A stretch of DNA of 32,000 nucleotides from Pirellula staleyi DSM 6068 (lineage in GTDB: Bacteria > Planctomycetota > Planctomycetia > Pirellulales > Pirellulaceae), in assembly GCA_000025185.1 (NCBI GenBank), contig CP001848.1, positions 3,930,001 to 3,962,000 of the forward strand, given 5' to 3'. This document shows positions 2,362 to 16,633 of this stretch, in pieces; positions within the stretch are counted from its first letter, which is position 1, and every line of letters begins with the position of its first letter. Below the pieces are notes generated by a model, which saw only the letters and a list, made by a program, of their open reading frames with translations, had not been told where the DNA came from and ran no database searches. The position numbers and the translations under genes were made by a program.

Positions 2362-2435
<74 letters not shown>

Positions 2436-2442
2436 CTCGAAA

Positions 2443-2475
2443 CCCCAGTAGTCACTTCGCCTGCTGGGGTTTTTT
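2443..2475 (+). terminator. Rho-independent terminator of the tRNA-Met transcript
   Basis: Stem CCCCAGTAG (2443-2451), 9-nt loop, stem CTGCTGGGG (2461-2469), followed by T6. Confidence 0.65.
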
Positions 2476-2574
2476 CGTGCGCCGGCCGCAGCATCCGGCG
2501 TTCCATAGTTACTTGAGCCATTCGCCGGTCCGTCTGTATCCATGCTCCCGGTTTTCCTTGGACGGCCCAAGTTC

Positions 2575-2605
2575 GCCCCGACAGTTTTTCGTCTTCAGTC
2601 GGGGC
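2575..2605. terminator. Hairpin between the convergent tRNA and the 2640-3137 gene (possible terminator, no U-tract)
   Basis: GCCCCGAC (2575-2582) pairs with GTCGGGGC (2598-2605) around a 15-nt loop. There is no T-run on either strand. Confidence 0.25.
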
Positions 2606-2639
2606 CGCTGCTATTGGAAATTCGTGGGTGGAGCGGGAT

Positions 2640-3137
2640 TCATTGTTTATCCTTCAGTCCCTGGATTACCTTGTCTTCGGGAAAAATCTTCTGCATCAGC
2701 TTCACCAACTGTGGGCGCACATCGTCAAAGTCTTCGCTGCCGACGGGCTTGCCATCTACATACACCTGTAGAATATCGCATTCGAAGCAGAAGCATACAT
2801 TCGTCGACTTGTCACCCTGGATGAATTCCAGCCGCACACCGAAGATAGGGTCGCAGGCCTTGCCCACGTCCCATAGGTAGCTTTTCTCGTCCAGCAGCAA
2901 TTGGCCCACGCTCTTTGCCAGCGCGTCGTCGACGGCGACCGGTCCGGCAATTACTTTGTATTCCTTGGCAGTTGGCTTGTAAAAAGAGTGGTCCGCCAGG
3001 CGATAGGCCTGCACTTTCGTGGGTTTGGCGACGACGGATTGCGCTTCTTTGTCGCCGAACAGGGAATCTAAGCTCTCGGCCGCCTGACAGTGGGCCGCCG
3101 ATAGTAGGATCACAAGAAGGATTAGAGCTGCTTTCAT
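2640..3137 (-). CDS. Secreted hypothetical protein (165 aa)
   Basis: ORF track entry. The N-terminus MKAALILLVILLSAAHCQAAE is a classic signal peptide with an A-x-A type cleavage context. The remainder has a coherent globular composition with 4 Cys. Confidence 0.7.
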   Translation of the reverse strand: MKAALILLVILLSAAHCQAAESLDSLFGDKEAQSVVAKPTKVQAYRLADHSFYKPTAKEYKVIAGPVAVDDALAKSVGQLLLDEKSYLWDVGKACDPIFGVRLEFIQGDKSTNVCFCFECDILQVYVDGKPVGSEDFDDVRPQLVKLMQKIFPEDKVIQGLKDKQ

Positions 3138-3516
3138 AGCGCCTACTTTCGGTAAAACCGGTCACCTTGGATTTCAAATCGCGATTGAGCCAAGCTGAGC
3201 CTGAGCCTGAGCCCGTCCAACCGTAACATGGCGCCAGCCCCAGCGTCTAGCTTCTGTCGAATTGTCCGAAATTTTCTTGCTTTTGCCGCAGCTGGAGGCA
3301 CGTCGGGGCAACGTCGAATAGACGGCCTAAACACTGCAGGCCGTCGACGAACTGAAGAGTTGCTTGACTGAACCAAAATCGCCCAACCAAGTTTGCGGCG
3401 CTGTGCAGATTTGATCGTTTAGAAAAGCGAATCGCGTTTGTTTGCTGCCACAGGGGCAGGGTAATGTCTCGATGATCATTTCCCGGATTTGCGAGATTGT
3501 TCGAAAGAAGTGCGAA

Positions 3517-3568
3517 CCGCTCAACTCAGAACCCCAGTAGTCACCTCGGCTACTGGTTTTTTATGCGC
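3517..3568 (+). repeat. Second, orphan copy of the tRNA-Met 3' flank, including a functional-looking terminator (stem 3534-3540 / 3550-3556, T6 at 3557-3562)
   Basis: ACCGCTCAACTCAGAACCCCAGTAGTCACCTCGGCTACTGGTTTTTTATGCGC aligns with 2429-2480 CCCGCAACTCGAAACCCCAGTAGTCACTTCGCCTGCTGGGGTTTTTTCGTGC. No intact tRNA or plus-strand ORF lies upstream of it. Confidence 0.6.
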
Positions 3569-3984
3569 TGCTGTCATCCTGGGCCTTCTCTTGGTCTGCA
3601 GCAGGCACCGCGAAGCAGTGAGAAATTAATTCTCCTTGTAAACCTGCTCCCAAATATCCATCGATTCCTTGCATCAAGATTATGATGGTAGTTCTCAGGC
3701 TTAACGCCTCGCTTGATGAGTTCTTGGGAAGTAAACGCAAGTATGCAGAAAGTACAAAAATGGTTTGATCAAAGAGATTTGTCAGCAGGTTCGATCGCAT
3801 CTAGCATCAAATCGACGACAGAGGGTAGCGTTCTGGAGATTGTAGTGAAAGTTGTAGTGTCAGTGCCATTATAACATTATAAGATTCGAATGATATGCAG
3901 AGTTGAACAGTATAATAATAAGGCATAAGATGTAACGCCTCACTGCTCGTTGAATCTACATTCAATCAGTCGAATCTGGCTGTT

Positions 3985-5015
3985 CTATATCCGATCGAGT
4001 GGCTTTGCACACTTGTAGCTCCAACTGCATTGAAGTGCGTATGAATCATCGTCGTACTCACATCGGCATATCTGAAAAGTTCTTGTATTCTCCAGATGCC
4101 TTTTTTGGTCTTCTAGCGAGTGTGTCGCAAAACTGTGTCTTAAAGAATGGCATGTCGCTCGCTTTGTCAGCCCAGCCTTCCGTACTGCTGTTGCCACCAC
4201 CTTTTGCACACTCATATCGTGCACATGATGTCGCCGCAGCTGCTCTGCTCCCTCGTTGTCATTCGCTCCAAGCCGGAGCCCTTCAGCAGCCTCTCTCGGC
4301 CGTGGATCGCGACTTAACTGCTTGGCTGGAAACAGGTACTGCCATGTCAAAGTACGGCCAGCCTCGGGGTATTTGCGTGCGAGTGCTTAGGGTAACCAGG
4401 CCCAGCCAGCACCTGCCTCCAGATCGAGCTCGTGTCGCCTCTCTACTGTTTCCAGCTGTCGAAGCAACCCTTCCACCAATCGCCCTGGCAGAGGTACCGC
4501 CCGATCCTTCTCCCCTTTGCCATCCCGCATCATCAGCTGCAGACGATCGAAATCAACATCTTGCACCCGCAGCCGACACGCCTCCATCAAACGCAATCCG
4601 GCTCCGTAAATCAGTCTCGCCATCAAGCGAAAGGGCTGCAGCGGAATCTCCGGCAGCACCCGCCGCACTTCTTCGACGGTCAGCATCACCGGCAGCTTTG
4701 TGGGGCGTTTGGCGCGTGTCTCATTGATCTCCAGCTTCTGCACAAGTACTTGGGTCTACAGAAAGAGAATCGCCGAGAGTGCTTGGTTTTCGTACTGGCT
4801 GCCACGTTCCGCTCAATTGCCAGGTACGAAAGAAAAGCATTCACCTCCTTGCTTTCCAGCTCTTCAGGGTGTCGCCACCAGCCCGCCAGCGCTTGATGAA
4901 ATCGGAGGAAGTCGACAATCCAGCTGTGGTAAGCCTCCTCAGTCCGAATTGACATAGGTCGCGCCCGGATTTCTCGCCGCACTAAGTCAAGCAGTTATAA
5001 TATTATTATTTGCAT
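3985..5015 (-). pseudogene. intI: Integron integrase (IntI-type tyrosine recombinase), inactivated
   Basis: Fragments at 4686-4982, 4387-4743 and 3985-4350 read LLDLVRREIRARPMSIRTEEAYHSWIVDFLRFH..EVNAFLSYLAIERNVAAST / NQALSAILFL*TQVLVQKLEINETRAKRPTKLPVMLTVEEV..LIYGAGLRLMEACRLRVQDVDFD..MMRDGKGEKDRAVPLP.. / WLP*ALARKYPEAGRTLTWQYLFPAKQ..RRHHVHDMSVQKVV..HSLRHSFATH. The ALxRKYPxA..W.WQY.FP segment is the IntI-specific insertion. Lesions are listed in the findings. Confidence 0.85.
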
Positions 5016-5119
5016 AGCAGCCAGTCGCCAGGCAAATTCGAAAAATCAGCCATCGGCTCAAATAGAAATAACCCGCGATCTAGATATTAGCGTTCCTCCC
5101 CACTTTGAGCAAAGTTTTC

Positions 5120-5148
5120 TTGACACCACCCCCTGAGGTATGCAGAAT
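5120..5148 (+). promoter_or_regulatory. Candidate cassette-directed promoter (Pc-like)
   Basis: TTGACA (5120-5125), a 17-nt spacer, then CAGAAT (5143-5148), oriented toward the cassettes in the intI/attI interval. This is a sigma70-style match only; promoter rules for this lineage are uncertain. Confidence 0.2.
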
Positions 5149-5187
5149 AATCCCGAAGTGGAATATGCAGATTTCTTTATAATAATT

Positions 5188-5194
5188 GTTCGGC
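5188..5194 (+). promoter_or_regulatory. Candidate attI recombination core
   Basis: GTTCGGC has the same core as the attC right ends (GTTCGC/GTTCGG). It lies 22 nt upstream of the first cassette ATG (5216), matching the 11-32 nt spacing seen at the other cassettes. Confidence 0.3.
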
Positions 5195-5215
5195 TCCTGA
5201 TGAATTTATGCCTCA

Positions 5216-5690
5216 ATGGCAGCACAGCGAATGAACGAAGAAGTGCGACAGGTTTCAATTTCGACTTCAGAAACGGAGGCCGCAGGGGTGTTGTTGGCTC
5301 TTGGTGCGATGTGCCTAGCGGTCGGTGTCGCATCTGTGACGAGGCAATTCGCGATACTGGACAAGCCGCTTCCCTGGCTGTTTGCGGGTGGGGCATTTGC
5401 GCTGATTGCATCAGGAATATGGTGGTGGCGTCTGAAAGTGGAGATTTCGCAGCGTGGCGTAGTCTTTCTCCCGCAGGCTCTTCATGGAAGAATTCAACTT
5501 CTTATGGTCGGACGTTCAAGGGTGGTGCTGGCGCTCGAATTCGTTCACGGATTCTGACGGCGGCGTGCAGGTCGACAGAGAACTCATTCTCGTGTTTACG
5601 AATGGACATGAGATAGCGATGCCTTATCCTTACTGCTGTAAAGAGCTGGTGGATTCTCTTTCGTGCAGAATTGGTCCAGAGTCGCGGTGA
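5216..5690 (+). pseudogene. Cassette 1: frameshifted membrane protein, paralog of the 6441-6950 product
   Basis: ORF 5216-5557 (2 TM, ..WWWRLKVEISQRGVVFLPQALHG) and ORF 5484-5690 (EEFNFLWSDVQGWCWRS..DGGVQVDRELILVFTNGHEI) lie in different frames. Joined together they align with 6441-6950 (..YWLFRRRLLLTEEGVRHYPFLAYHTNDFFWKDVLSWGSRV..DDGGHEY..QLINGRII). The frame switch falls between about 5463 and 5500. Confidence 0.55.
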
Positions 5691-5698
5691 AAGAATCC

Positions 5699-5787
5699 GC
5701 CGAACAAAGCGTTGGACACGGAGCCGCGGATCGGGCGGCTTTGAAATGGAAACTTTACTTCCCGCGGCCCGGTCAACGCGGTCGTCC
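5699..5787 (+). repeat. attC-like site (type A centre), right core GTCGTC
   Basis: Left arm CCGAACAAAGCGTTGGACACGGAGCCGCGG, right arm CCCGCGGCCCGGTCAACGCGGTCGTCC. The arms are complementary with bulges. The centre is GGCGGCTTTGAAATGGAAACTTTACTT. Confidence 0.55.
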
Positions 5788-5801
5788 CCTGAGTTGCGAC
5801 G

Positions 5802-6326
5802 ATGGGCTGTGACATCCATGTCAATGTCGAATATCGCCATCCTGTCCTTGGCTACCAACCGGTTGTCGCAGGCGGATACTTCGTTGAGCCAAGGTACGAA
5901 CTCTTTTCTGCTCTTGCAGGTGTTCGCATGGAACCGGAGGAGTCTTGTTTGATTCCAGCACGCGGATTTCCATGTGATGCTTGTTTTCCAATCTTCGCGA
6001 TCGCACACCAGTTGGTGGTTGCCGATGCGAATTCGCAACTTGCTAGGCTGGTGACTGATTGGGTCCTTGCCTCTGAGGTTCCTCCGGGCTCTGACGTTTT
6101 TGAGGCGGAAAAAGAATTGGTTGGCATGGCTCGATGGATTCGCCATCCAGACTATCATCATCCTTCGTATCTGTCACACTTGGAAACAATGGAATGTCTT
6201 CGACATTTCGGTTTCGATAGCAATTCTACCCCACCAGTGTTTCTGGTGCTTACTGATTTGTTGGCATCGATAGATTTCAGGTTTGGATATCCTAGTGCCA
6301 GACTTGTGTTCTGGTTTGACAACTAA
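5802..6326 (+). CDS. Cassette 2: hypothetical protein (174 aa), N-terminus MGCDIHVNVEY
   Basis: ORF track entry. It starts 15 nt after the attC right core and is the only plus-strand ORF filling the cassette. I assign no family. Confidence 0.6.
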   Translation: MGCDIHVNVEYRHPVLGYQPVVAGGYFVEPRYELFSALAGVRMEPEESCLIPARGFPCDACFPIFAIAHQLVVADANSQLARLVTDWVLASEVPPGSDVFEAEKELVGMARWIRHPDYHHPSYLSHLETMECLRHFGFDSNSTPPVFLVLTDLLASIDFRFGYPSARLVFWFDN

Positions 6327-6339
6327 AACAAAAATAAGA

Positions 6340-6428
6340 TGAACAAATCTATGCGCCCCGAGCATGCGATCGGCTGTTGTTTTGCTGGACGATTTCCTTA
6401 TGCGGCCGGATGATGGATACCATTCGTC
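6340..6428 (+). repeat. attC-like site, degenerate (right core ATTCGTC)
   Basis: TGAACAAATCTATGCGCCCCGAGC...TGCGGCCGGATGATGGATACCATTCGTC parallels the type B consensus GCGAACAACCGCATGCACCGG...GGCGGCCGGTGATGCAGAACGTTCGC. Confidence 0.45.
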
Positions 6429-6440
6429 AGATTTAAACTC

Positions 6441-6950
6441 ATGAAGATGATTGACGACATCGAAGCAAAAAGGACTGCGGTGGCTTTACTGCTTGCCGCC
6501 GCTGTTTCCGCGATTGTTTCCAATGCGAATTTTGGGCGGTCTTTATCTGCGGCGCTGAGCATTTGTTTTATGGATCGTTCCCTTAAAGATCGTCAGTTGA
6601 TTCCTGCAGATGCGGAACCGTTTTTTGCCCTCTGCGCATTTATTCTGTTGGTTTGTGCCAGTTGCTACTGGCTGTTTCGCCGTCGCCTCTTGCTAACGGA
6701 AGAAGGGGTGCGTCATTATCCGTTTCTCGCCTACCACACGAACGACTTTTTCTGGAAAGATGTCTTGTCGTGGGGTTCAAGGGTCACTTTGTTACAAGAT
6801 GACGGCGGTCACGAATATCCAAGTACACAATTCTATGTTCAACTCATAAACGGCAGAATCATTGAAGAGCCCGGATTCTCTGAAATCGATTTGGCCGCTG
6901 CACTTGAGAACCAAGTCGGCCAGCGACTCGATATTCACCCCGACAAATAG
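6441..6950 (+). CDS. Cassette 3: membrane protein (169 aa), 2 TM plus a small C-terminal domain
   Basis: ORF track entry with hydrophobic segments AVALLLAAAVSAIV and FFALCAFILLVCASCYWLF. It is the intact paralog of cassette 1. Confidence 0.7.
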   Translation: MKMIDDIEAKRTAVALLLAAAVSAIVSNANFGRSLSAALSICFMDRSLKDRQLIPADAEPFFALCAFILLVCASCYWLFRRRLLLTEEGVRHYPFLAYHTNDFFWKDVLSWGSRVTLLQDDGGHEYPSTQFYVQLINGRIIEEPGFSEIDLAAALENQVGQRLDIHPDK

Positions 6951-6966
6951 GTTCTCAGCAGAGTAT

Positions 6967-7058
6967 GGACGTACAAGCCGATGCTCGAGATCTGTGATGT
7001 CAGGCGGATTTGAAATAGACAATCTCTTGTCGCCGCCCTGTGAACGGTGACGTTCGCT
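6967..7058 (+). repeat. attC-like site (type A centre), right core GTTCGCT
   Basis: GGACGTACAAGCC...CAGGCGGATTTGAAATAGACAATCTCTTGTCGCCGCCCTGTGAACGGTGACGTTCGCT. GGCGG pairs with CCGCC, and GGACGT.CA pairs with TGACGTTC. Confidence 0.55.
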
Positions 7059-7080
7059 TGCCTCTGTCGAACTGGTTTTA

Positions 7081-7485
7081 ATGAGTAACGCGATTTTTGC
7101 CCCTGGCTTCCGGCTATCCATCATTGATGTATTGGTACTTGTTGTTGGCACTGCGGCGATCATTTTCCTTTCGATGTACATTTGGTGGTGGGGCTTCGTT
7201 CCTGCTTTTGTGCTCGCTCATTTCTTTCTGTTCTGCAATGTTGTGCGGATGGCGAGACCCCTCGAATTGATTTGGGCTGTTGTGTTTGTCGGTCTTGCAG
7301 GGGCAACGATTGCAACTGATTCGCCTGGTTGGTTGGTCACTGCAGTCGCGTCGTTGCTTGTGACCGTGGTCGTCGTTATCGTGGAGATGCGGAAGCCTTC
7401 GTATCACGGCGTTGGCTGGCAGTGGATTAATCCCGGTCTAACAGCGTGGTGGCAAGCAAATGTCGCCAAGAGGGACGACGGGTAA
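7081..7485 (+). CDS. Cassette 4: small integral membrane protein (134 aa, about 4 TM)
   Basis: ORF track entry. It has four hydrophobic stretches and starts 23 nt after the GTTCGCT core. Confidence 0.7.
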   Translation: MSNAIFAPGFRLSIIDVLVLVVGTAAIIFLSMYIWWWGFVPAFVLAHFFLFCNVVRMARPLELIWAVVFVGLAGATIATDSPGWLVTAVASLLVTVVVVIVEMRKPSYHGVGWQWINPGLTAWWQANVAKRDDG

Positions 7486-7505
7486 AGCCCTGTTGCAGTT
7501 CCTCG

Positions 7506-7593
7506 GCGAACAACCGCATGCACTGGGCCGCCGTTCGGCGTTGGTTTCACAATGGGTCATCGCCAGCGGCGGCCGGTGCTGCATGACGTTCGC
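7506..7593 (+). repeat. attC site, type B (88 nt)
   Basis: GCGAACAACCGCATGCACTGGGCCGCCG..loop..CGGCGGCCGGTGCTGCATGACGTTCGC. The outer pair is GCGAAC/GTTCGC. The inner stems carry unpaired bases, as expected of attC. Confidence 0.85.
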
Positions 7594-7610
7594 GTGCGGA
7601 ATCATTATTT

Positions 7611-8021
7611 ATGCCATGGAATTGCTTGCAATGCGACGAAGTCGCTGATGATATTTACGATGCTTGCTGGGCGTGCTGAGCATCACGCACAGGCACTGCG
7701 AGCCTCGATTTCCAGCATGCCGACCACTACGAGCCGACGATCTCGCCCGAAAAAACTCAATACCTACTCTGGGATCTCATGCGTTTGGTAACTGCGATGT
7801 GCTTGATTTTTGCATTCATCCGTTCGCCAAATGTGGTGACAATGATTGTAGGATTAGGTGCGATTGCGTGGCTGTTTCTCCACCTGCTCAGTTGGATCTC
7901 AACAATGCAGGTTTTCCACTGGCAACTCCAGTTCCGTGCGAGTCGAAATCGCCAACAAAGATCGCTAGAGGAAGGCGTTTCGGGTGGCGTCGAAGCGACT
8001 GAGGCGAGTTCATCCGCGTAA
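7611..8021 (+). pseudogene. Cassette 5: zinc-ribbon plus 2-TM protein interrupted by an in-frame TGA (7677-7679)
   Basis: 7611-7679 encodes MPWNCLQCDEVADDIYDACWAC*. The same frame stays open through ASRTGTASLDFQHADHYEPTISPEKTQYLLWDL into track ORF 7779-8021 (2 TM). The W-x-C-x2-C-x10-C-W-x-C spacing is that of a small zinc ribbon. Confidence 0.5.
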
Positions 8022-8121
8022 CTTGCCTTACCAAACTACCCCATCCAAGATTTGTTGCCGTGTCAACTACGCTCTGATATCTTAGTTCTCGTCGTAATCT
8101 GCATTCTTACTGCTTCGACCC

Positions 8122-8209
8122 GCGAACAAACGCATGCACCGGACCGCCGTTCGGGGTTGGTTTCACAATGGTTCATCACAAGTGGCGGCCGGTGATGTAG
8201 AACGTTCGG
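8122..8209 (+). repeat. attC site, type B (88 nt)
   Basis: GCGAACAAACGCATGCACCGGACCGCCGTTCGGGGTTGGTTTCACAATGGTTCATCACAAGTGGCGGCCGGTGATGTAGAACGTTCGG. Confidence 0.85.
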
Positions 8210-8231
8210 ACTTTGAATCCAAGAATATCGT

Positions 8232-8720
8232 ATGAACCATGATGCTTCGATCCTCGCACTAATTCAGAAGTACCAAGCGCATGTCGCTGACGCGGTTTCG
8301 CTATTCCGTCAAATGGGTATCAAAGGCAACATACTTCGTGCTTGGCGACGCTCTGCGATTCCGACATGGGCTGATGAAGGCGATAATTCGGACCCCATAA
8401 TTCCGCAACGAGGTCTGCTTAGTGACGCCCGATCGATTCGGTACTCTTTTCACGGGATAGGCTGTTCTGTCGAGTATGGCTCAGTTGTGGTCGATTTCGA
8501 TTTCGGACCAAATGGTCGTTTCGACGGCTTTGACGCATGGTGTCTTCATCTGTTTGCCGAGTCATTTCCGGAGTTCTCTGCTTTTGCGGATATCGACCTC
8601 GTCCGGACGTGCTTGTCGGATCTTGCTGAATCGGGAACAATCGCGAAAATCGAGGGCGTTGTGGGATCACACTTATACTACTTCATTGACGGGATGAGCG
8701 CTGACATAAGTCGTACGTGA
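8232..8720 (+). CDS. Cassette 6: hypothetical cytoplasmic protein (162 aa)
   Basis: ORF track entry. The ATG is 28 nt after the attC core. The motif YSFHGIGCSVEYGSVVVDFDFGPNGRFDGFDAW looks like a conserved small-domain family, possibly immunity-protein-like. I cannot name the family with confidence. Confidence 0.7.
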   Translation: MNHDASILALIQKYQAHVADAVSLFRQMGIKGNILRAWRRSAIPTWADEGDNSDPIIPQRGLLSDARSIRYSFHGIGCSVEYGSVVVDFDFGPNGRFDGFDAWCLHLFAESFPEFSAFADIDLVRTCLSDLAESGTIAKIEGVVGSHLYYFIDGMSADISRT

Positions 8721-8730
8721 ACGGCGGAGT

Positions 8731-8819
8731 CCGAACCATCGCATGCACGGGAGTGGCGGTGGCCAGCGGATTTTGGAATAAACTTCAACTCCCGCCGCCC
8801 CGTGATGCAGAACCTTCGC
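8731..8819 (+). repeat. attC-like site, chimeric (type B arms, type A centre), right core CTTCGC
   Basis: CCGAACCATCGCATGCACGGGAGTGGCGG..AGCGGATTTTGGAATAAACTTCAACTCCCGCCGCCCCGTGATGCAGAACCTTCGC. Confidence 0.7.
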
Positions 8820-8828
8820 ATTTGTACG

Positions 8829-9485
8829 ATGAATAAGAAGTCTCAACTAGACGCGATCATTCTCGCCGAGGTTCTTCGCTTACAGCGATGGGCAGGTGGA
8901 GAGCATGTTCCAGCAGATCGTATTTTCGGACTCATGAACGGATTTGAGTCCGTTGTTGATCAGGAATCGGAATCATTCGGTATCAGTCGCGATACTCAGG
9001 ATAAGGTCGAAAACCTTCTTGAGGACGTTGAGTACGGAACGCAGTCTACCGATGGAATGGCCATCAAGGATCGTCTACGTCGCGATCATGTTGCTGAATC
9101 GGACGCGGGGCGCGTCATGCAACTATGTCGGTTGCAAAGCCGATTTGTTGATAGTGTAAATGCGATTGCAAACGGCGTTGGTTCGGTGTTTGCATACATC
9201 ACTCGTCGTCGGCAGCCAGAACAGAATTGGTTTGGCTCGCTTCACTATATTGAACTGGTTGATTGCACTGAAGGCGTTCGCAAAAAACTTCACGCCGTCT
9301 TTGCTCCTGCAATCCCAAGGGTTGGGGAATATGTTACACCAGAAAATGGGCCAGCCATGCGAGTCGTAGGGGTCGATCATGTTGTTGCTTCCCAAGGCGA
9401 TGATGAATCGGTTGTACACAATATACTCATCCCACATGTCCTGCTAGAGATGGATGACAACGACGAAGTCGCGAGCAACGAATAG
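8829..9485 (+). CDS. Cassette 7: hypothetical protein (218 aa), acidic
   Basis: Track ORF 8802-9485 begins with a GTG inside the attC. The first ATG (8829, MNKKSQLD..) lies 15 nt after the core and is the more likely start. Confidence 0.6.
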   Translation: MNKKSQLDAIILAEVLRLQRWAGGEHVPADRIFGLMNGFESVVDQESESFGISRDTQDKVENLLEDVEYGTQSTDGMAIKDRLRRDHVAESDAGRVMQLCRLQSRFVDSVNAIANGVGSVFAYITRRRQPEQNWFGSLHYIELVDCTEGVRKKLHAVFAPAIPRVGEYVTPENGPAMRVVGVDHVVASQGDDESVVHNILIPHVLLEMDDNDEVASNE

Positions 9486-9494
9486 CAGGAACTG

Positions 9495-9585
9495 GCGAAC
9501 AACCGCATGCACCGGACCGCCGTTCGGGGTTGTTTTTTTAAAAATGGTTCATCACCAGTGGCGGCCGGTGATGCAGAACGTTCGC
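9495..9585 (+). repeat. attC site, type B (91 nt)
   Basis: GCGAACAACCGCATGCACCGGACCGCCGTTCGGGGTTGTTTTTTTAAAAATGGTTCATCACCAGTGGCGGCCGGTGATGCAGAACGTTCGC. Confidence 0.85.
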
Positions 9586-9590
9586 TGCAT

Positions 9591-10004
9591 ATGGTCACTG
9601 ACGTCTATCACCTCAAGGCGTACAACTCGGAACAAGGGCTCCACAACTTGACGTTGGCGGTGCGCGAGGTCGACGATGATTACATCATCACGTGCAAGCT
9701 TCCCGACTCCGATGACTTGCTAACCGGCCAAGCAGGCGATTGTTTTGCAGCCCTACAAATCATGCGCCGAGAAGCTGAAGGACGTAACTGGAAGATTTGC
9801 TGCAAAGGGGCACGTCGGAATGTATGGCCGTCGGCAATGTCTCGGTCGATGGGCGGCGGAGTAAAGGCATACGTGCTAGAGATGGGACGGCAGGGGCGGG
9901 TGGATTCGTTGGTGGACATCTTCGATGATGACGATCCTGAATCGTATTCGTCCGTATCGGATCAAGAGGCCTTCGCTAGCGCGTGGCTTGAATCGCTTCA
10001 ATGA
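9591..10004 (+). CDS. Cassette 8: hypothetical protein (137 aa)
   Basis: Track ORF 9507-10004 starts inside the attC. An in-frame ATG at 9591 (MVTDVYHLKAYN..) lies 11 nt after GTTCGC. Confidence 0.6.
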   Translation: MVTDVYHLKAYNSEQGLHNLTLAVREVDDDYIITCKLPDSDDLLTGQAGDCFAALQIMRREAEGRNWKICCKGARRNVWPSAMSRSMGGGVKAYVLEMGRQGRVDSLVDIFDDDDPESYSSVSDQEAFASAWLESLQ

Positions 10005-10010
10005 AAGTCA

Positions 10011-10099
10011 GCGAACAACCGCATGCACCGGACCGCCGTGCGGCGTTGGTTTAACAATGGCACATCAGCGGCGGCGGTCGGTGATGGTGAGGGTTAAGC
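10011..10099 (+). repeat. attC site, type B arms, canonical right core GTTAAGC
   Basis: GCGAACAACCGCATGCACCGGACCGCCGTGCGGCGTTGGTTTAACAATGGCACATCAGCGGCGGCGGTCGGTGATGGTGAGGGTTAAGC. The right core fits the classical GTTRRRY. Confidence 0.8.
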
Positions 10100-10103
10100 A
10101 CGC

Positions 10104-10727
10104 ATGACAAGTCGCTGGCAGTTCGATGACCCGCCGAATACTGCGTCGTTCACGACGAGTTTCGTACTCGACGGCGCGCCGATATTACGCGTCTACCACG
10201 ATTACGATGGCGGCTGGCAACTCCACGGACCGCCGGATAATCTCGCTACACCAGACGTTGCCCGCATCGTATCGCTCGGAAGCATGATTGCGCATGATCC
10301 GTCACTGTGCGAATTGCACGATCTGCCCAATGGTTGGCTGGCGTTTCGTAAGTCGACTAAAGATCGTTGGAAACGGCAGAAGAACAACCCGTTTCCAGCG
10401 TACGCGGAGAATGGATACTACCTCGAAGATGCCGTTTGGATGACTAAGCATCGCGACGATGTTCACCCACCCTCGGAAGAGCGACGAGACAACCTCGAAG
10501 TCGGCACTTACGTCAAGCTGCTTTTTCGATTCGCCGCCGAAGATGCCCAGCGGCGGGACAAGCAAACCGAACGGATGTGGGTACTCATCACGCACATCGA
10601 TGAAGACGGCAACTACATCGGAACTCTCGCAAGCGATCCGTACAACTCCAGCACGCTTACCTGGGGAGACACCATACAATTTCATCCGCTCCATGTCATG
10701 GAAATTCTCGAAGAGGACGGCGCATAA
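10104..10727 (+). CDS. Cassette 9: DUF2185 (Imm33-like) N-domain plus DUF2314-like C-domain protein (207 aa)
   Basis: SFTTSFVLDGAPILRVYHDYDGGWQLHG..VSLGSMIAHDPSLCELHDLPNGWLAFR matches my recollection of the DUF2185 pattern. ERMWVLITHIDEDGNYIGTLASDPYNSSTLTWGDTIQF matches the DUF2314 pattern (E.MWV..G.L.N.P..GD). These matches are recalled, not searched. Confidence 0.75.
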   Translation: MTSRWQFDDPPNTASFTTSFVLDGAPILRVYHDYDGGWQLHGPPDNLATPDVARIVSLGSMIAHDPSLCELHDLPNGWLAFRKSTKDRWKRQKNNPFPAYAENGYYLEDAVWMTKHRDDVHPPSEERRDNLEVGTYVKLLFRFAAEDAQRRDKQTERMWVLITHIDEDGNYIGTLASDPYNSSTLTWGDTIQFHPLHVMEILEEDGA

Positions 10728-10806
10728 CAAACCGTTGCACCCGTCCGCCCAACGAGTCTTGCCGCGTGGTAGAATCATGGTCTGGCGGGTGATTGCGAAC
10801 GTTCGC
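10722..10806 (+). repeat. attC-like site (divergent), left core overlaps the stop codon, right core GTTCGC
   Basis: GCATAACAAACCGTTGCACCCGTCCGCC...TCTGGCGGGTGATTGCGAACGTTCGC. GGCGG/CCGCC and AAC/GTT pairings are present; the arms are less complementary than in type B. Confidence 0.55.
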
Positions 10807-10832
10807 TAGTCGAGAGTGAGGAGCGTCGGAGG

Positions 10833-11693
10833 ATGCGTCGCACGACCATTTCGCTCGTTTTTGCCATGCTCACGGCTCTCCTAGCGTTTCCTGGCTCCGG
10901 TCAGGAACCAGAATCCGCAGCGGCACCTAAGGCGAAGGCCCCGTCGATCGACGAACTGTTGCTCTTCTTCCCGTCAAAGTACCCCAGGGGTGAATGGAAG
11001 CCCCAGGATCTGCAGTTCGAGGATGTATTCTTTGCTGCTGAAGACGAGACGAAACTGCATGGATGGTATTGTCCCGCCAAAGAGCCACGGGCCGTGCTGC
11101 TTGTCGCTCATGGAAACGCAGGGCACGTTGCTTCACGAGCGCCCTGGCTACGCTATTTGCAGACCCGAGCGAAGGTTTCCGTCTTCATGTTCGACTATCG
11201 GGGTTACGGGCGGAGCGAGGGAACGCCAACGGTTGAAGGGGCACTCCAGGATGCGCGGGCAGCTCGGGCAAAGCTGCGCGAACTAGCGGCCATCCAAGAC
11301 TCGGAAATGGTTCTCATGGGCGAGTCGCTAGGTGGTGCGATCGTCATTCAGTTGGCAGCCGACTCTCCGCCGCGAGGATTGATCGTGCAAAGTACTTTCT
11401 CGTCGCTGCGCGATGTTGCCGACGTTCACTACCCGAAATTATCCTGGCTCGTTCCAAGGGGCAAGCTGGACTCGGCTTCACAGATCACTCGATACCGAGG
11501 TCCGCTACTGCAAAGTCATGGCAGCGCGGATCGAACGATTCCATTCTCGTCGGGCGAAAAACTGTTTCGGTCGGCCAGTGAGCCAAAACAGTTTGTTACC
11601 ATCGACAACGCCGATCACAACAACTGGCTCACCGACGCCTATCTAAAACAGCTAGACGAATTCCTCACCCGCCTTTCCGTCGCTCGAAAATGA
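10833..11693 (+). CDS. Cassette 10: secreted alpha/beta-hydrolase (BEM46 / serine aminopeptidase S33-like), 286 aa
   Basis: Signal peptide MRRTTISLVFAMLTALLAFPG. Other motifs: HGNAGH, FDYRGYGRSEG, nucleophile elbow GESLGG, and C-terminal ..SHGSADRTIPF..DHNN, which supplies the Asp and His candidates. Confidence 0.85.
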   Translation: MRRTTISLVFAMLTALLAFPGSGQEPESAAAPKAKAPSIDELLLFFPSKYPRGEWKPQDLQFEDVFFAAEDETKLHGWYCPAKEPRAVLLVAHGNAGHVASRAPWLRYLQTRAKVSVFMFDYRGYGRSEGTPTVEGALQDARAARAKLRELAAIQDSEMVLMGESLGGAIVIQLAADSPPRGLIVQSTFSSLRDVADVHYPKLSWLVPRGKLDSASQITRYRGPLLQSHGSADRTIPFSSGEKLFRSASEPKQFVTIDNADHNNWLTDAYLKQLDEFLTRLSVARK

Positions 11694-11696
11694 GCC

Positions 11697-11730
11697 ACCA
11701 ACCATCGCGTCCACGGAAGCGGCGTTAGGG
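11697..11730 (+). repeat. Possible minimal attC (34 nt), right core GTTAGGG
   Basis: CCAACCATCGCGTCCACGGAAGCGGCGTTAGGG. The left part resembles the type B/chimeric left arm CCGAACCATCGCATGCACGG. It ends 8 nt before the next ATG. This is far shorter than any attC I know of. Confidence 0.3.
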
Positions 11731-11737
11731 AGCACCA

Positions 11738-12196
11738 ATGGAATCGATTGCTCACGAACTTCGTCAGGCCGCTGCCAAGCTCCGGCTGTCGCCCTCTGAA
11801 ATGCGCGAATTGCCCGAGCCGGAAAATGCCGATGTCGTTACCGCCGTACTCAGCAACTTTGTGAAGTCCGGACATCGACGCTGGTGGTGGGAAGATTTTC
11901 GAGAACCAGGAGTCGCTCGCAGATTCCACGAGGGGGATGGATGGAAACGCATTCCTGGCATTGTGCCTGACTGCATGGAACGAATATGGTTCATGGCAGA
12001 GGACGGTCGGGTGGCTCCGTATCGTGTGTATGAAACAACGGCTGAGACGGCCTCTGCTCTTGTTGGCGAATGTTCCGGTTTCGAGTATTACCTGGTCGCC
12101 AAGAATCTGAGTTGGCTAATCTGCGAGAACCATCACCATGTGGTAATCGCGATTGGTGACCAAGTAGAGCAACAGCTCGCCGCTAGTGCAGGCTAA
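11738..12196 (+). CDS. Cassette 11: hypothetical cytoplasmic protein (152 aa)
   Basis: ORF track entry. Motifs RRWWWEDF and YYLVAKNLSWLICENHHHVVIAIG suggest a conserved small-domain family that I cannot name. Confidence 0.65.
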   Translation: MESIAHELRQAAAKLRLSPSEMRELPEPENADVVTAVLSNFVKSGHRRWWWEDFREPGVARRFHEGDGWKRIPGIVPDCMERIWFMAEDGRVAPYRVYETTAETASALVGECSGFEYYLVAKNLSWLICENHHHVVIAIGDQVEQQLAASAG

Positions 12197-12283
12197 CGAG
12201 AAAATGCACCCGAGTTGCCGTTGGTGCCGGATTGGGAGTCGAGAATCGCTCGCGCTGGCTGGGGGGGATTTTGGTCGTTGGCC
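12191..12283 (+). repeat. attC-like site with classical cores GGCTAAC ... GTTGGCC
   Basis: The reverse complement of the left arm (GGGTGCATTTTCTCGTTAGCC) aligns with the right arm GGGGGATTTTGGTCGTTGGCC. The left core overlaps the stop codon of 11738-12196. Confidence 0.65.
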
Positions 12284-12369
12284 AGAAACCATGGTGAAAT
12301 CCACAGGGGCTCTCGCCCCCTCGTGAGGCGTGAAGGCTGGGTGGCAGAGGGGAGTGAGTGACGCATCTG

Positions 12370-12882
12370 ATGGACTTGAGCCAGTTGCTAGAGGCCCGAC
12401 AGGGCCGACCGACTGAACGTCAGGCGGCGCGGAAGATCGCCACCTTCGCCGTCATTCCTGCAGCGATTTTGGGGCTGCTCACTGGGACTCAGCTGGTTGA
12501 TGTGGCCGACCCGATAGGGCGACTGCTGTGGGTCTGCACAGCGACCGCGCTGGGGGCTGGCTTCGGCGCCGCGTTCCTGGTGCTGGGGCTGTTTCACCTG
12601 TTTGGCTTCCGCTTGGTCGCCCTAATCGCCGATGCACTGGTAGGCAGTTTCATCGGCCTACTCTGCGGGGGTGCGCTAACCATGTTGCTCCTCTGGAGCA
12701 AGCTGGTTCATCCTAACCATGCGCTACTAGCGCTACTTTTGATCCCGCTCGGCGCCGTCGTTGTTCCACTCTGGCGAGCTTGGAGTGGAAACTCGCCTCC
12801 TTGCGCTGCTGCAGGGCAAGCCGCAGCAGCCCCCGATGGCGAACCAGACGCTGAGCAGGATCCTCCCGGGAGGCGGATTTAG
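12370..12882 (+). CDS. Cassette 12: integral membrane protein (about 170 aa, about 4 TM), Ala/Pro-rich tail
   Basis: The track ORF starts at GTG 12358; the first ATG is at 12370. It has several long hydrophobic segments. Its 3' end overlaps the next attC-like site. Confidence 0.55.
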   Translation: MDLSQLLEARQGRPTERQAARKIATFAVIPAAILGLLTGTQLVDVADPIGRLLWVCTATALGAGFGAAFLVLGLFHLFGFRLVALIADALVGSFIGLLCGGALTMLLLWSKLVHPNHALLALLLIPLGAVVVPLWRAWSGNSPPCAAAGQAAAAPDGEPDAEQDPPGRRI

Positions 12883-12958
12883 AAATCTTCACTATTTGTG
12901 CCTCTGTTCCTGCTGTCGCCCCTGTTACCGACAGCGTGATGCCGGCGCTTCGTTCTCG
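12839..12958 (+). repeat. attC-like site (type A centre), right boundary uncertain
   Basis: GCGAACCAGACGC..GGGAGGCGGATTTAGAAATCTTCACTATTTGTGCC..CTGTCGCCCCTGTTACCGACAGCGTGATGCC..CGTTCTCGC parallels 6967-7058 (..CAGGCGGATTTGAAATAGACAATCTCTTGTCGCCGCCCTGTGAACGGTGACGTTCGCT). The right core could be GTGATGC (12936) or GTTCTCG (12952). Confidence 0.4.
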
Positions 12959-13787
12959 CTACCGCAAAATTTGGTTAGCCAAAAATCTCGAAACCCCCTC
13001 AGCGTGGTTTTTTCTCGTGAAATCACTCGGACTCACGTACTGGCAAAAGACCATTCTGAGATCACTCAGGAATGCTGTCCTGCTCTATCTCATCGTCGTG
13101 ATCGCCATGTTTCTGTTACAGCGTCAGTTACTTTACTTCCCTTCGCATGATCCACCGAAGGGTGATTTGAAGCCTTGGCTGGCCGAGGATCGTTTGATCG
13201 GTTTTTGCCGCGAGGTTGCTGAGCCAAAGACGATCTGGCTGATGATGCATGGCAATGCGGGGCAGGCTGCCGATCGCGACTATGTACTCGAGCGATTGGC
13301 TGATAGCGACTCGCTTTACGTCCTAGAATACCCGGGCTATGGCGCCCGGGAAGGTAAACCGACGAAGCTGTCCATTGATCTCGCGGCGGCTGAGGCCTTT
13401 CGAGTTCTTCGGGCTAAGAACCCGAGCAGACCCATTTGTGTACTGGGAGAGTCACTCGGGAGCGGTCCCGCGTGCATGCTGACCCACGAGCCATCCCCTC
13501 CCGAGAAAGTGTTCCTGGCTGTTCCCTACGACACACTACCCAATGTGGCAGCGAAGCGTTTCTTTTTTCTTCCTGTACGTCTCTTAATGCTGGACAGGTG
13601 GAATAACGTGCAGGCACTACAAGGCTACGAAGGTGAGGTCGAGATTCTAGCCGCATCCGAGGATGAAGTGATCCCACCGACCCACGCCGAAGCCTTGGCA
13701 CGTCAAGTTCCTCATGCAAAGTTGATCCGCATACGTGGTGGCCATAATGATTGGTCCTTCGATCGCTCCATTCAGATTCGAAGGTAG
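12939..13787 (+). CDS. Cassette 13: membrane-anchored alpha/beta-hydrolase, paralog of 10833-11693 (about 282 aa)
   Basis: TM segment AVLLYLIVVIAMFLL, then HGNAGQ, LEYPGYGAREG, GESLGSG and ..ASEDEVIP..GGHND. The start could be ATG 12939, or GTG near 13016 if the attC core is the one at 12952. Confidence 0.8.
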   Translation: MPALRSRYRKIWLAKNLETPSAWFFLVKSLGLTYWQKTILRSLRNAVLLYLIVVIAMFLLQRQLLYFPSHDPPKGDLKPWLAEDRLIGFCREVAEPKTIWLMMHGNAGQAADRDYVLERLADSDSLYVLEYPGYGAREGKPTKLSIDLAAAEAFRVLRAKNPSRPICVLGESLGSGPACMLTHEPSPPEKVFLAVPYDTLPNVAAKRFFFLPVRLLMLDRWNNVQALQGYEGEVEILAASEDEVIPPTHAEALARQVPHAKLIRIRGGHNDWSFDRSIQIRR

Positions 13788-13807
13788 TGTCGAGGTTAAA
13801 TTCACGA

Positions 13808-13871
13808 GCGAATCATACGCGACTGAAGTCTTGGATCGCTTAGCCTCGGCCGGGTGATCCTAGGTATTTAC
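13808..13871 (+). repeat. Degenerate, centre-deleted type B attC remnant
   Basis: GCGAATCATACGCGACTG...CTCGGCCGGGTGATCCTAGGTATTTAC compared with GCGAACAACCGCATGCACCGG...GGCGGCCGGTGATGCAGAACGTTCGC. The GTT core is lost. Confidence 0.3.
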
Positions 13872-13882
13872 TGGAAGGTCAG

Positions 13883-14170
13883 ATGCTTAAGGCGACGACA
13901 ACTACGAGGGCTCGTGTCTGGGGAACAGAGAATGCGTGGAGTCTCTCTCCAGTGCAGACTGCCGATGAGCCGAATCAGCTATGCGATATCGAATTGGAAA
14001 TCCAAGGCGACGACCAGAACGGTTATCACTTGGTGATGAGTCCGCGTGGATTCTTCCCAGCCGACACATGGCATCAAACGAAACAGGACGCTCTCGATAC
14101 GGCCAGGGAACTACTCGGCGTGCTTCCCGAAGTTTGGTCGAAGCCAATCCGAAGAGGACTTGACAAGTGA
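13883..14170 (+). CDS. Hypothetical small protein (95 aa), cassette-like
   Basis: ORF track entry. Same strand and size class as the cassettes, with coherent composition (..NGYHLVMSPRGFFPADTWHQTKQDALDTARELLGV..). Confidence 0.5.
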   Translation: MLKATTTTRARVWGTENAWSLSPVQTADEPNQLCDIELEIQGDDQNGYHLVMSPRGFFPADTWHQTKQDALDTARELLGVLPEVWSKPIRRGLDK

Positions 14171-14279
14171 ATAAGGCAATGGGGTACTGAGCGGCGAAGC
14201 GGGTTCGCAGTGGATTAAACGGTATTTAGTTGCTGCTGCGTTATGCTGGGGCATTATTGATGAAGATGGGATAGCTCCT

Positions 14280-14606
14280 ATGAAAGACAGCCGACGACCA
14301 TTGATATTGCCTCCGGCGGCTGAATCCGACATGAATGCCATCGAAATGGCACGGATTTGGATTGCGGAGAATCAACTTCATTGCGTTTTGAATGTTGGGT
14401 ATTGGCAGCAGGCATCAGGAATCGATGAGCGACATGCTTGGGGTATCTTGCTGGCAGATATTGCTAGACATGCCTCGTTTGCACTCGGAAATGCAATGGG
14501 GAGTGATCCGCGTGATAACCTAAAAATGATTCTCGAATCCCTCCAGACCGAAATTGCTCACAAAACATCCGAGCATGTCGGAGAGTGGCGTGAAGGCAAG
14601 CCTTGA
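14280..14606 (+). CDS. DUF5076-like protein (108 aa), cassette-like
   Basis: AIEMARIWIAENQLHCVLNVGYW..ERHAWGILLADIARHASFAL matches my recollection of the DUF5076 signature (E..R.W....L.v.l....W.....WG.lLaD.arH.a.A). Recalled, not searched. Confidence 0.65.
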   Translation: MKDSRRPLILPPAAESDMNAIEMARIWIAENQLHCVLNVGYWQQASGIDERHAWGILLADIARHASFALGNAMGSDPRDNLKMILESLQTEIAHKTSEHVGEWREGKP

Positions 14607-14694
14607 TCGTCGCCGCCGATCTTGCGTTTGGAGAAGTCAACATCACTCATGTTGGCAGAGTTTTCGCCGTGTTTGAAAGGTCAATTGCACCTAT

Positions 14695-14952
14695 ATGTCA
14701 GACTTGGAACATAATCCACCCAACACGATTGGGTGTACTTGGGGTGTCGTGTTGTTTGGCGGCGGTTTCATGGGTGGTTGGTTTCTCGCTTCGGCGATCT
14801 TCTATTATTACGTTGGTGATGTCGATCTTGGGCCAGACCGAAATCTTGTGTTGGCGAGCCTTAGCGTGGGATATCTGTCGGGCTTGCTCTGTCTGATGGT
14901 TGGTAGGCGTTTGCTATTAAAACATGCTCATCCACCGCGCAGGGCCTCGTAA
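14695..14952 (+). CDS. Small membrane protein (85 aa, 2 TM), cassette-like
   Basis: ORF track entry with hydrophobic segments WGVVLFGGGFMGGWFLASAIFYYYV and LVLASLSVGYLSGLLCLMV. Confidence 0.5.
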   Translation: MSDLEHNPPNTIGCTWGVVLFGGGFMGGWFLASAIFYYYVGDVDLGPDRNLVLASLSVGYLSGLLCLMVGRRLLLKHAHPPRRAS

Positions 14953-15018
14953 TAAGATGCATCTTATAAGAGTGTCATGGCGTACGATGATGGGCACTAC
15001 CGCACGGTTGTGGAGTGA

Positions 15019-15143
15019 GACCTAGTACTCGGTCTAGCGGTTAAAGTCATCCTCAGCTGCGATTCACACTGCTGGACAAGCCAGCTAGTAGCCACCCCGT
15101 TTTGCCTGACATTGATCGCTAGACGGACCACTAGTAGTAGGTC
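15019..15143 (+). mobile_element. MITE-like non-coding element, copy A (125 bp) with about 35-bp imperfect terminal inverted repeats
   Basis: Left end GACCTAGTACTCGGTCTAGCGGTTAAAGTCATCC. The reverse complement of the right end is GACCTACTACTAGTGGTCCGTCTAGCGATCAATGTCAGG. The whole element recurs inverted at 22104-22222. Confidence 0.6.
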
Positions 15144-15382
15144 GTTTATCATTTCATTTCAGGTAATCATCTAGTGTGACACTGGGCTCCGACCAGTGAG
15201 AAGTGCAAAAGGCTCTCTGTTCGGGGAGATTTTTGCGAGCAACATCGCTTCGAGCTTCTGCACTGGCAAGATGCCAGTGGCACCCAAAAAATGACATCGA
15301 GTGTTAGACGGGTTAGTAGCTTCGAGTTGATGTCTGTAGGTGGTTGCGGATCGGCTCAAGGGGGACGGAATCGCTCGGGAGG

Positions 15383-16633
15383 TTAGGGAGTGGGGTGGGG
15401 GGAGGTTGCGAGGGATTCGGCGAGGCGGCGCTGTTTGCGATAGTGGCTGGGAGTGACGCCGACTTCGCGGCAGAAGACTTCGTAGAGTTGCATGCGGTCG
15501 CTAAATCCGACGTCGCGGGCGATCTCGGTGAGGCTGCGATCGGACTGGATGAGTTCTCGCTTGGCCCGTTCGGTTCTGACGCGGCGAATTTCGTCGGCTA
15601 TCGGACGGTCGAGGACCTGCCGAAAGCGTCGCTGCAAGGTGCGGGTGTGGACGTGCAGCGACTCGGCGACCGTGTCGCAGTTGATGGGCAAATGCGAGTG
15701 GGAGGCAATGAACTCGAGGGCTTGGGCGATGAGCTTGTCTTCGACGGCGTAGAAATCGGTTGATTCGCGAACGATCATCCCTTGGGGTGGCAGGATCAGA
15801 TGCGGTGGCTGTGACGGTTTGCGTGCTGATGGTTGGAGGTGGCTCAGCCGCTTTTTTGATCGCGACCGGAGCGACTGCTGATGCATCAGTTGGTCGAGCA
15901 GCCGCGCAGCTTCGTAGCCGATGCGCTCGTAGCCGATTTCCACGCTGCTGAGCGACGGACGTGGGTGGGTGCAGAGGGTTTCTTCGTTCATGCCCGCGAC
16001 GATCGCCACATCGCCAGGAATGCGCCAGCCGCGCCTCCGGCAGAGCTGTACGACAAGGCGGCCCATCACCTCGGTGCAGATCGAGACACCGATGGGGGGC
16101 TGCCAGTGGTCCATCCAGGAGTCGATCAGCCGCTCCGTTTTCTTCCAGGTGGCATAGCTGCGACTCGGCACCAGCGGCAGTCGCTCGACGATGCAGGGAA
16201 AGCCCGCCTCGCTCACCACGGCGCGAAACGCGGCTGCTTGTTCGAGCTGAGCTTTATCTTTGCGGGTGAGCACGGCAAATTGGCGGAGGCCGCGCGCGAG
16301 GAGATGTTCGGCTTCGAGACGTCCGACAGCAGCGGCATCGTGAAACACCCCGGGGAGGGGGGCGCGAACGGGGGAATTGAACCAAATGTTGACCAGCGGA
16401 ATGGGGAAGCGGCTTTGCAGTTCGGCGAGTCGAGCCGGAATGCGTCCGATCACACCGTCGTAGAGGCGGGCCTGTTTCGGCTGTTCGAGCAGATGCTCGG
16501 CGACGTACTCGTCGATGACCGATTCCCATCCCTTTTCGGCGGCATAACGCTGCGTCCCTGCAAAAATATCGGCGTGCCGCTTAAGGGGCCAGCGAAGATC
16601 GAGCATGATCGCCACGCGGCGAGATTTAGGCAT
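15383..16633 (-). CDS. AraC-family transcriptional regulator with a periplasmic-binding-protein-like sensor domain (XylR-like), about 416 aa
   Basis: The C-terminus has an AraC HTH (..TLQRRFRQVLDRPIADEIRRVRTERAKRELIQSDRSLTEIARDVGFSDRMQLYEVFCREVGVTPSHYRK). The N-terminal and middle parts are a LacI/PBP-like fold (RVAIMLDL..). Track ORF 15383-16807 extends upstream, but M at 16633 (MPKSRRVAIMLDL) leaves a 172-bp divergent promoter region, so I prefer it. Confidence 0.85.
   Translation of the reverse strand: MPKSRRVAIMLDLRWPLKRHADIFAGTQRYAAEKGWESVIDEYVAEHLLEQPKQARLYDGVIGRIPARLAELQSRFPIPLVNIWFNSPVRAPLPGVFHDAAAVGRLEAEHLLARGLRQFAVLTRKDKAQLEQAAAFRAVVSEAGFPCIVERLPLVPSRSYATWKKTERLIDSWMDHWQPPIGVSICTEVMGRLVVQLCRRRGWRIPGDVAIVAGMNEETLCTHPRPSLSSVEIGYERIGYEAARLLDQLMHQQSLRSRSKKRLSHLQPSARKPSQPPHLILPPQGMIVRESTDFYAVEDKLIAQALEFIASHSHLPINCDTVAESLHVHTRTLQRRFRQVLDRPIADEIRRVRTERAKRELIQSDRSLTEIARDVGFSDRMQLYEVFCREVGVTPSHYRKQRRLAESLATSPHPTP

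Follow-up and report, generated by a model that had tools for sequence, protein, structure and literature searches.

A probable decaying chromosomal integron in Pirellula staleyi DSM 6068: an intI pseudogene beside an array of attC-bounded cassettes

The superintegron of Vibrio cholerae is a chromosomal element of more than 100 cassettes, with cassettes of unknown function. In sedentary chromosomal integrons the attC recombination sites are more alike within an array than between arrays, and in the integrons of Xanthomonas decay of the integrase is frequent. Planctomycetes are among the integron hosts, and pseudogenes of the integrase gene intI were found near 15 of 279 attC clusters without an integron integrase (CALIN) (Cury et al. 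2016, PMC4889954). A Planctomycetes-specific attC model has also been built (Ghaly et al. 2021, PMC8352920). The locus described here belongs to Pirellula staleyi DSM 6068 and was analysed within a 32-kb stretch of contig CP001848.1 (assembly GCA_000025185.1, positions 3,930,001 to 3,962,000; hereafter the window, to which all coordinates refer). It is very probably (about 0.9) a chromosomal planctomycete integron in decay, or operationally, in the classes of IntegronFinder, a CALIN beside an intI pseudogene. The original prediction, made from the letters of the DNA, had proposed an integron or CALIN architecture, and this was borne out: the locus combines a dead IntI gene, a promoter-like site, an attI-like block and same-strand units of a single open reading frame (ORF) with attC hairpins.

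A CALIN consists of two or more attC sites clustered along one strand, separated by less than 4 kb, with no functional intI nearby. The ten plus-strand attC sites in 5697-12286, nowhere more than about 1.4 kb from the next, place the locus in this class; a complete integron has an intact integrase, which the locus lacks. Like the CALIN with an intI pseudogene described by Cury et al. (2016), it has two or more attC sites on one strand and an intI pseudogene within 10 kb. No essential difference was found, the locus being a planctomycete case in which the cassette promoter (Pc) and attI are still recognisable. An integron counts as sedentary if most genomes of the species have it at the same locus or if its attC sites exceed 19 (Cury et al. 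2016, PMC4889954). With 10-12 sites the array stays below that number, and the term is plausible on account of the chromosomal context, the lack of transposition genes nearby and the same cassette order in a 97%-identical relative.

With the Vibrio superintegron and the Xanthomonas integrons the locus shares its chromosomal position, a closer likeness of attC sites inside one array than across arrays, and genes of unknown function in its cassettes. It differs from them in its much shorter array (about 12 cassettes, against more than 100 in Vibrio), in another attC sequence family and in unpaired bases that read C and T on the bottom strand, and no toxin-antitoxin cassette was detected in the window. 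The closest relatives are two planctomycete integrons with intact intI, one in a Pirellulaceae metagenome-assembled genome (MAG; GCA_033762315.1, L004) and one in JGI 3300071637 (L005). They share with the window an IntI that is 68-72% identical and has the same long IntI-specific insertion, the same Pc/attI block, the same attC structural family with unpaired bases at the same positions, and small co-oriented cassettes of mostly unknown function. They differ in that the window intI is a pseudogene, that several window attC sites are degenerate or truncated, and that no cassette is held in common.

The gene at 4002..4994 on the minus strand is a member of the IntI family and not of XerC or XerD. 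Its translation, stitched across frames, scored 324.3 bits on the NCBIfam model TIGR02249 'integron integrase' (cutoff 265), as against 108.9 bits on the XerC model TIGR02224 (cutoff 335) and 100.5 bits on the XerD model TIGR02225 (cutoff 330), which settled a check of identity that the original prediction had set. The long IntI-specific insertion (DPRPREAAE...QLRRHH) is present and aligns with that of the two nearest homologues, P0001 from a JGI metagenome (72% identity) and P0002 from a Pirellulaceae MAG (68%); the homologues number thousands of integron integrases. The gene is dead because of two frameshifts, two in-frame stops and the loss of the catalytic tyrosine. Three-frame translation and tblastn with P0001, the closest intact homologue, as query gave the frame order -1 (4994-4797), -3 (4791-4102) and -1 (4103-4002), with frameshifts near 4795 and 4102. 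The in-frame TAG/TAA stops are at 4758-4756 and 4389-4387, both at conserved tyrosine positions, and the catalytic tyrosine is replaced by histidine at 4043-4041 (MIYTH to MIHTH). Several further invariant residues are altered in the alignment with intact relatives. The earlier claim of a dead integron integrase on the minus strand is thus upheld by the model score and by five lesions.

The attC sites, numbered S1 to S12 along the array, were analysed with two covariance models. The first was trained on five sites only (7503, 8119, 8728, 9492 and 10008; S4 to S8) and run across the full window with filters off. These five form one family, with 62-86% identity over 87 nt in ungapped comparison. 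The model retrieved five further sites (5697, 10717, 6966, 12189 and 6336), all on the plus strand and at ORF boundaries. In the relatives with intact intI it found nine sites between cassette genes and on the cassette strand, six in L004 and three in L005, and in a third array (L008, GCA_036704275.1) 12 attC sites were scored. The second model was trained on 16 sites from the window, L004 and L005, with S2, S3 and S11 outside the training set. Neither model gave anything convincing outside 5697-12286 in the window. Scoring of the sites by a covariance model had been set as a test of the prediction, and ten sites were scored with the models built here; the repeats were also confined to the cassette structure as expected, all those of the window lying inside the array.

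In the 16-site alignment 90.4% of the cells form standard pairs, compared to 34-42% with slid partners; the alignment was fitted to the model, which favours structure, and the slid controls were fitted likewise. Changes on both sides occur in 25 of 30 pairs, and the AAC and GTT triplets are nearly invariant. The layout is an R'' box ending in AAC, a 4-nt spacer that faces a 5-nt spacer, the L stems, a variable loop and an R' box starting with GTT. The R''-L'' arm carries two single unpaired bases, 6 bp apart. On the bottom strand it forms the 3' arm, which is the canonical place for the unpaired bases of attC sites. As published, attC sites are imperfect hairpins, 57-141 nt in length, that have a conserved AAC...GTT, R and L boxes, an unpaired central spacer, extrahelical bases and a variable loop (Loot et al. 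2017); judged with the lineage-specific models, the window sites have these features.

The ten supported sites are 91-98 nt long, and all lie on the plus strand. Seven are well formed. S1 (5697..5793; first model E 2e-5, non-training) has well-formed stems and a degenerate R' (GTC for GTT). S4 (7503..7597) folds on the bottom strand with -27.1 kcal/mol (z -3.2), S5 (8119..8213) is likewise well formed, S6 (8728..8823) has compensatory changes relative to S4, S5, S7 and S8 and an R' of CTT, and S7 (9492..9589) has a fold z-score of -4.0. In S8 (10008..10102) the R' GTTAAGC mismatches its own R'' and fits the R'' of the next site. In S9 (10717..10810; E 1e-3, non-training) the R'' GCATAAC includes the stop codon of the upstream ORF. 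The other three are degenerate, since the alignments to the second model show many broken pairs: S2 (6336..6431; E 0.4 with the first model and 5e-3 with the second), with R' ATTCGTC; S3 (6966..7061; E 0.017 and 4e-4), with TAC for AAC in R''; and S11 (12189..12286; E 0.03 and 9e-5, non-training), with GGCTAAC...GTTGGCC and degenerate inner stems. S10 (11696..11730, plus strand) is a truncated site with only the left R''-L'' arm, which shares 76% identity with its counterpart in S6. Directly after this arm the next ORF begins, and that ORF has a full-length Pfam match; the right arm was deleted and two cassettes were thereby fused. S12 (12838..12921, plus strand) is a remnant that retains GGCGAAC, a 7-bp inner stem (AGCAGGA/TCCTGCT) and GTCGCC; it forms an end-to-end hairpin (z -1.6) and received no score from either model.

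Of the 13 attC sites originally predicted, ten were therefore scored by the covariance models, whereas 11697 is a half site, 12839 a remnant, and 13808 is supported neither by the models nor by folding (z +0.8), nor by a generic AAC...GTT hairpin scan. The quoted core sequences are present, with GTTAAGC at 10093, GGCTAAC at 12191-12197 and GTTGGCC at 12277. Start codons had been placed 11-32 nt past almost every site; counted from the G of R', this holds at nine sites and, with 21-24 nt, at the 12839 remnant, whereas the distance after 12189 is 81-93 nt. The suggested bottom-strand folding gave z-scores that were mostly unremarkable and significant at two sites, and the unpaired bases were found in the alignment.

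The models are lineage-specific, as the second one scores no site in an array-like region of Neorhodopirellula lusitana (L009, FXUG01000001), and their negatives are therefore weak evidence. For this reason the generic AAC...GTT hairpin scan was run, and it gave no intergenic match in 13000-15400. A metagenome scan with the attC left-arm pattern returned one chance match, which was rejected by the model. Rfam, which has no attC family, identified only the tRNA-Met in the window.

The sequence between intI and the first cassette ORF can be aligned with the equivalent regions of L004 and L005, both with intact integrases. All three integrons have TTGACAC-N16/17-TATGCAGAAT upstream of the first cassette, followed downstream by a second motif, TATGCAGA(G/T)T. 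The candidate Pc lies at 5120..5148 on the plus strand (TTGACA-17-CAGAAT), is aimed into the cassette array, was found by a promoter scan and is conserved in L004 and L005. Over 3900-15500 eight promoter-like matches were found where 7.5 are expected, which is the chance level, and the top match (10/12) is the one between intI and the first cassette. The description of the cassette ORFs as promoterless agrees with this, the best match preceding the array. This conserved promoter-like site may still drive transcription of the cassettes close to attI. The attI-like block (5139..5194, plus strand) was defined by alignment with L004 and L005, contains repeated TATGCAGA(A/T)T motifs and terminates in TGTTCGG. 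In the three integrons the block finishes in TGTT(C/A)G, and similarity is lost right after GTT (5188-5190 in the window), the expected look of an attI G|TT beneath differing first cassettes. On the evidence of this alignment the attI crossover G|TT would be located at 5188-5190. The R' tail of the block, GTTCGGC, and the R'' of the first attC, GCCGAAC, are complementary. The conserved block also holds a direct repeat, TATGCAGAAT / TATGCAGA(G/T)T, and those of L005 and L004 carry in addition an inverted TGCAGAA...TTCTGCA; the repeats may be binding sites of the integrase or of a regulator. The window copy (5139-5190) is the most diverged of the three.

In this platform of intI, then Pc and attI, then cassettes, a working integrase would have recombined the folded bottom (minus) attC strand at the conserved AAC/GTT, as is typical for the family. 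Promoterless single-gene cassettes would have been inserted at attI (G|TT 5188) and excised through attC x attC exchange. In an inserted cassette the bases after the G of R' would derive from the downstream cassette and should pair with the R'' of that cassette. Over the seven positions beyond the core in S4-S9, 27 of 42 are complementary to the next R'' and 13 of 42 to the own R''; contiguous matches between an R' tail and the next R'' link 8204 with 8736 (9 nt) and 9580 with 10016 (8 nt). A homologue of the DUF6896 cassette protein, 61% identical, is located between two attC sites of the same family in L008, and it is the sole gene common to the two arrays.

The integrase gene was later destroyed by two frameshifts, two stops and the loss of the catalytic tyrosine, which leaves the array frozen in cis; subsequent dynamics would need an integrase in trans or ordinary recombination between similar attC repeats. 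Several attC sites and at least one cassette gene are eroding, as seen from three degenerate attC sites, one half site, one remnant and the in-frame stop in 7611-8021. S2 scores 18 bits in the window compared to 36 bits for its orthologue in L007, a 2.3-kb Logan contig (SRR28423907) and the only fragment found at the conspecific level, and it is 7% divergent from that contig as against about 2% elsewhere. In the four ORFs common to the window and L007, 17 of 30 substitutions are non-synonymous, which, with small numbers, suggests weak constraint.

L007 matches 5802-7592 and 8122-8764 at 97% identity, with the ORFs at 5802, 6441, 7081 and 8232 intact and collinear. It lacks cassette 5, as the 616 bp between attC 7503 and attC 8119 are absent. 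The sole attC at this position is S4-like up to 7514 and S5-like from 8140 on, with the switch between 7514 and 7524. In its body 9 of 11 informative positions agree with S5, and the two exceptions are family consensus; the S4 and S5 repeats are 86% identical. Canonical excision or insertion of cassette 5 by an integrase, which predicts an S4-like body, was considered and rejected. The difference resembles ordinary recombination between attC repeats, and from the position of the switch it would be better explained by repeat recombination or slippage, by a top-strand-type exchange at R'', or by a mis-join of repeats. The junction-precise G|TT polymorphism expected between relatives thus did not materialise, the single difference found lying near R''. 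Tentatively, the array could have kept changing after the death of the integrase, by an integrase-independent or non-canonical route in which cassette 7515-8130 was exchanged just past R''.

Several points weigh against a decaying integron. The models are derived from the lineage itself, which makes their backing of the five seed sites circular. Only two sites reach a significant fold z-score, because GC-rich shuffles also fold well. Expression from the promoter-like site at 5120-5148 is putative. The cassette-5 difference maps just after R'' and not at G|TT, hence it is not direct evidence of integrase action, and L007, a short-read contig, could mis-join repeats. Finally, on the bottom strand the unpaired attC bases are C and T. 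In class 1 and Vibrio attC sites they are T and G, and on a weaker reading the planctomycete sites might use another strand-selection code.

The mostly unremarkable folding, together with a repeat distribution known from only 32 kb of the genome, would also fit genome-wide palindromes of the repetitive extragenic palindrome (REP) type or resembling miniature inverted-repeat transposable elements (MITE), lying beside the relic of a tyrosine recombinase and not serving as integrase substrates. This is scarcely credible: all ten scored sites share a strand and a 6.6-kb stretch, with a single site at each gene boundary, no site occurs in the other 25 kb of the window or in a syntenic MAG contig (L001), and the same structural family is found at the equivalent position beside intact IntI in L004 and L005. 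In addition AAC/GTT alone is conserved, compensatory change is extensive, and the R' tails co-vary with the next cassette. It is very unlikely as well that the integron still functions in cis, with lesions of the integrase that are sequencing or assembly errors or are bypassed, even if seven attC sites are well formed, four of them 78-93% identical to one another, and the attI and Pc block is still recognisable. The lesions are five and independent, stops by base substitution at conserved tyrosines and a Tyr to His change of the nucleophile are not produced by indel-type sequencing errors, and several more invariant integrase residues are altered. An array inert in cis could be active in trans through a second intact integrase, elsewhere in the genome or on a mobile element, which would keep the central attC sites well formed. 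The attC sites of 7503-10810 are indeed well formed despite a heavily decayed integrase, and half of CALIN occur in IntI-encoding replicons or genomes, with mobilisation in trans proposed (Cury et al. 2016, PMC4889954). Within the window no second intI was found, the sole cassette polymorphism has a non-canonical junction, and attC decay is seen towards either end of the array, which makes activity in trans improbable, though less so than the two preceding alternatives.

Under the preferred reading, a chromosomal integron in decay, the cassette array extends over 5189..12915 on the plus strand and comprises about 12 cassettes with ORFs between the attC sites. The first cassette has an ORF at 5216-5557. 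Cassettes 2 (5802-6326), 3 (6441-6950), 4 (7081-7485) and 6 (8232-8720, DUF6896) carry the ORFs that are intact in L007, and cassette 5 (7611-8021), absent from L007, has an in-frame TGA at 7677-7679. They are followed by ORFs at 8829-9485 (218 aa), 9591-10004, 10104-10727, 10833-11693 (a secreted-looking alpha/beta hydrolase), 11738-12196 (DUF6756) and 12370-12882. The recognisable families are DUF6896, DUF6756, the one alpha/beta hydrolase and a weak DUF2314-like C-terminus; the remaining cassette proteins matched no Pfam or NCBIfam family, NCBIfam giving only generic hydrolase similarities. The 218-aa protein has 52 representatives among 1.84 billion, and therefore belongs to a small but real family. 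A homology search with ten cassette proteins concatenated gave no match, no cassette protein matched a defence model in PADLOC, and the DUF6896 protein, modelled with AlphaFold (pLDDT 81), did not match any PDB fold significantly. The undescribed biology expected in the cassettes did not emerge; they are the usual cassettes of unknown function, with no defence-system match.

Within the first cassette (5216-5690) the overlapping ORFs 5216-5557 and 5484-5690 lie in different frames and may represent one frameshifted gene. The ORF of 7611-8021 opens with a zinc-ribbon-like CxxC-X11-CxxC, after which the TGA follows; the part past the TGA (ATG at 7779, 80 aa) is hydrophobic, and the whole is probably a cassette pseudogene. 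Downstream of the array, in 12936..14952, four more plus-strand ORFs without a recognisable attC were noted: 12939-13787 (a second alpha/beta hydrolase, membrane-anchored-looking), 13883-14170, 14280-14606 (DUF5076) and 14695-14952. The GC content drops to 0.50-0.53 from about 13000. These four may be decayed old cassettes, and their membership in the array is unproven.

Further observations were made in the related arrays. In L005, the closest relative with an intact integrase, the cassette array includes a gene (604-1212) whose domains are those of a reverse transcriptase and a group II intron maturase; some group II introns are known to target attC sites. The 12-site array of L008 starts beside a group of defence-like genes, for a type I restriction subunit, a KAP NTPase, an HNH protein and an SprT-like protein (1-9800) and contains a second DUF6896 gene at 14275-14712. 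The last 14 kb of the N. lusitana contig hold a DUF6896 homologue among small co-oriented ORFs, including one for a ParE toxin; this run is cassette-array-like, and either has another attC family or is no integron array.

The flanks of the locus encode planctomycete-specific domain families. On the right an AraC-type regulator is followed by genes with planctomycete-specific domains, and a contig scan with this neighbour identified L001, a Planctomycetaceae MAG contig that is syntenic with the right flank at about 80% amino-acid identity and breaks off precisely where the array begins. A non-coding stretch of 430 nt (14953-15382) separates the last small ORF from the regulator and has an inverted repeat whose 28-nt arms, 15022-15049 and 15107-15134, are 79% complementary. 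The left flank contains a tRNA-Met(CAT) gene (2362-2436). Its 3' end and the terminator hairpin (2428-2473) are duplicated at 3517-3562, 1089 bp downstream and 80% identical over 46 nt, and between the copies there is one minus-strand ORF (2640-3137, 165 aa) with a signal-peptide-like N-terminus and no family match. The duplication looks like the att-type scar of a small element at a tRNA, directly to the left of the dead intI. The local GC skew within the 32 kb weakly suggests that the plus strand is the leading strand, in which case the attC bottom strands would lie on the leading-strand template, as they do in most sedentary integrons (Loot et al. 2017).

Since planctomycete integrons and CALIN beside intI pseudogenes have already been described, the locus is an ordinary example of a well-described type of element, and it leaves the understanding of integrons as it was. 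Its use lies in annotation and in the testing of attC models for Planctomycetota. It offers a cleanly dissected case of integron decay outside the Proteobacteria, with a recognisable platform, graded erosion of attC sites and one non-canonical cassette-sized polymorphism. Exchange after the loss of the integrase, if true, would document loss or gain of cassettes in 'fossil' integrons, through repeat-mediated recombination or top-strand-type exchange.

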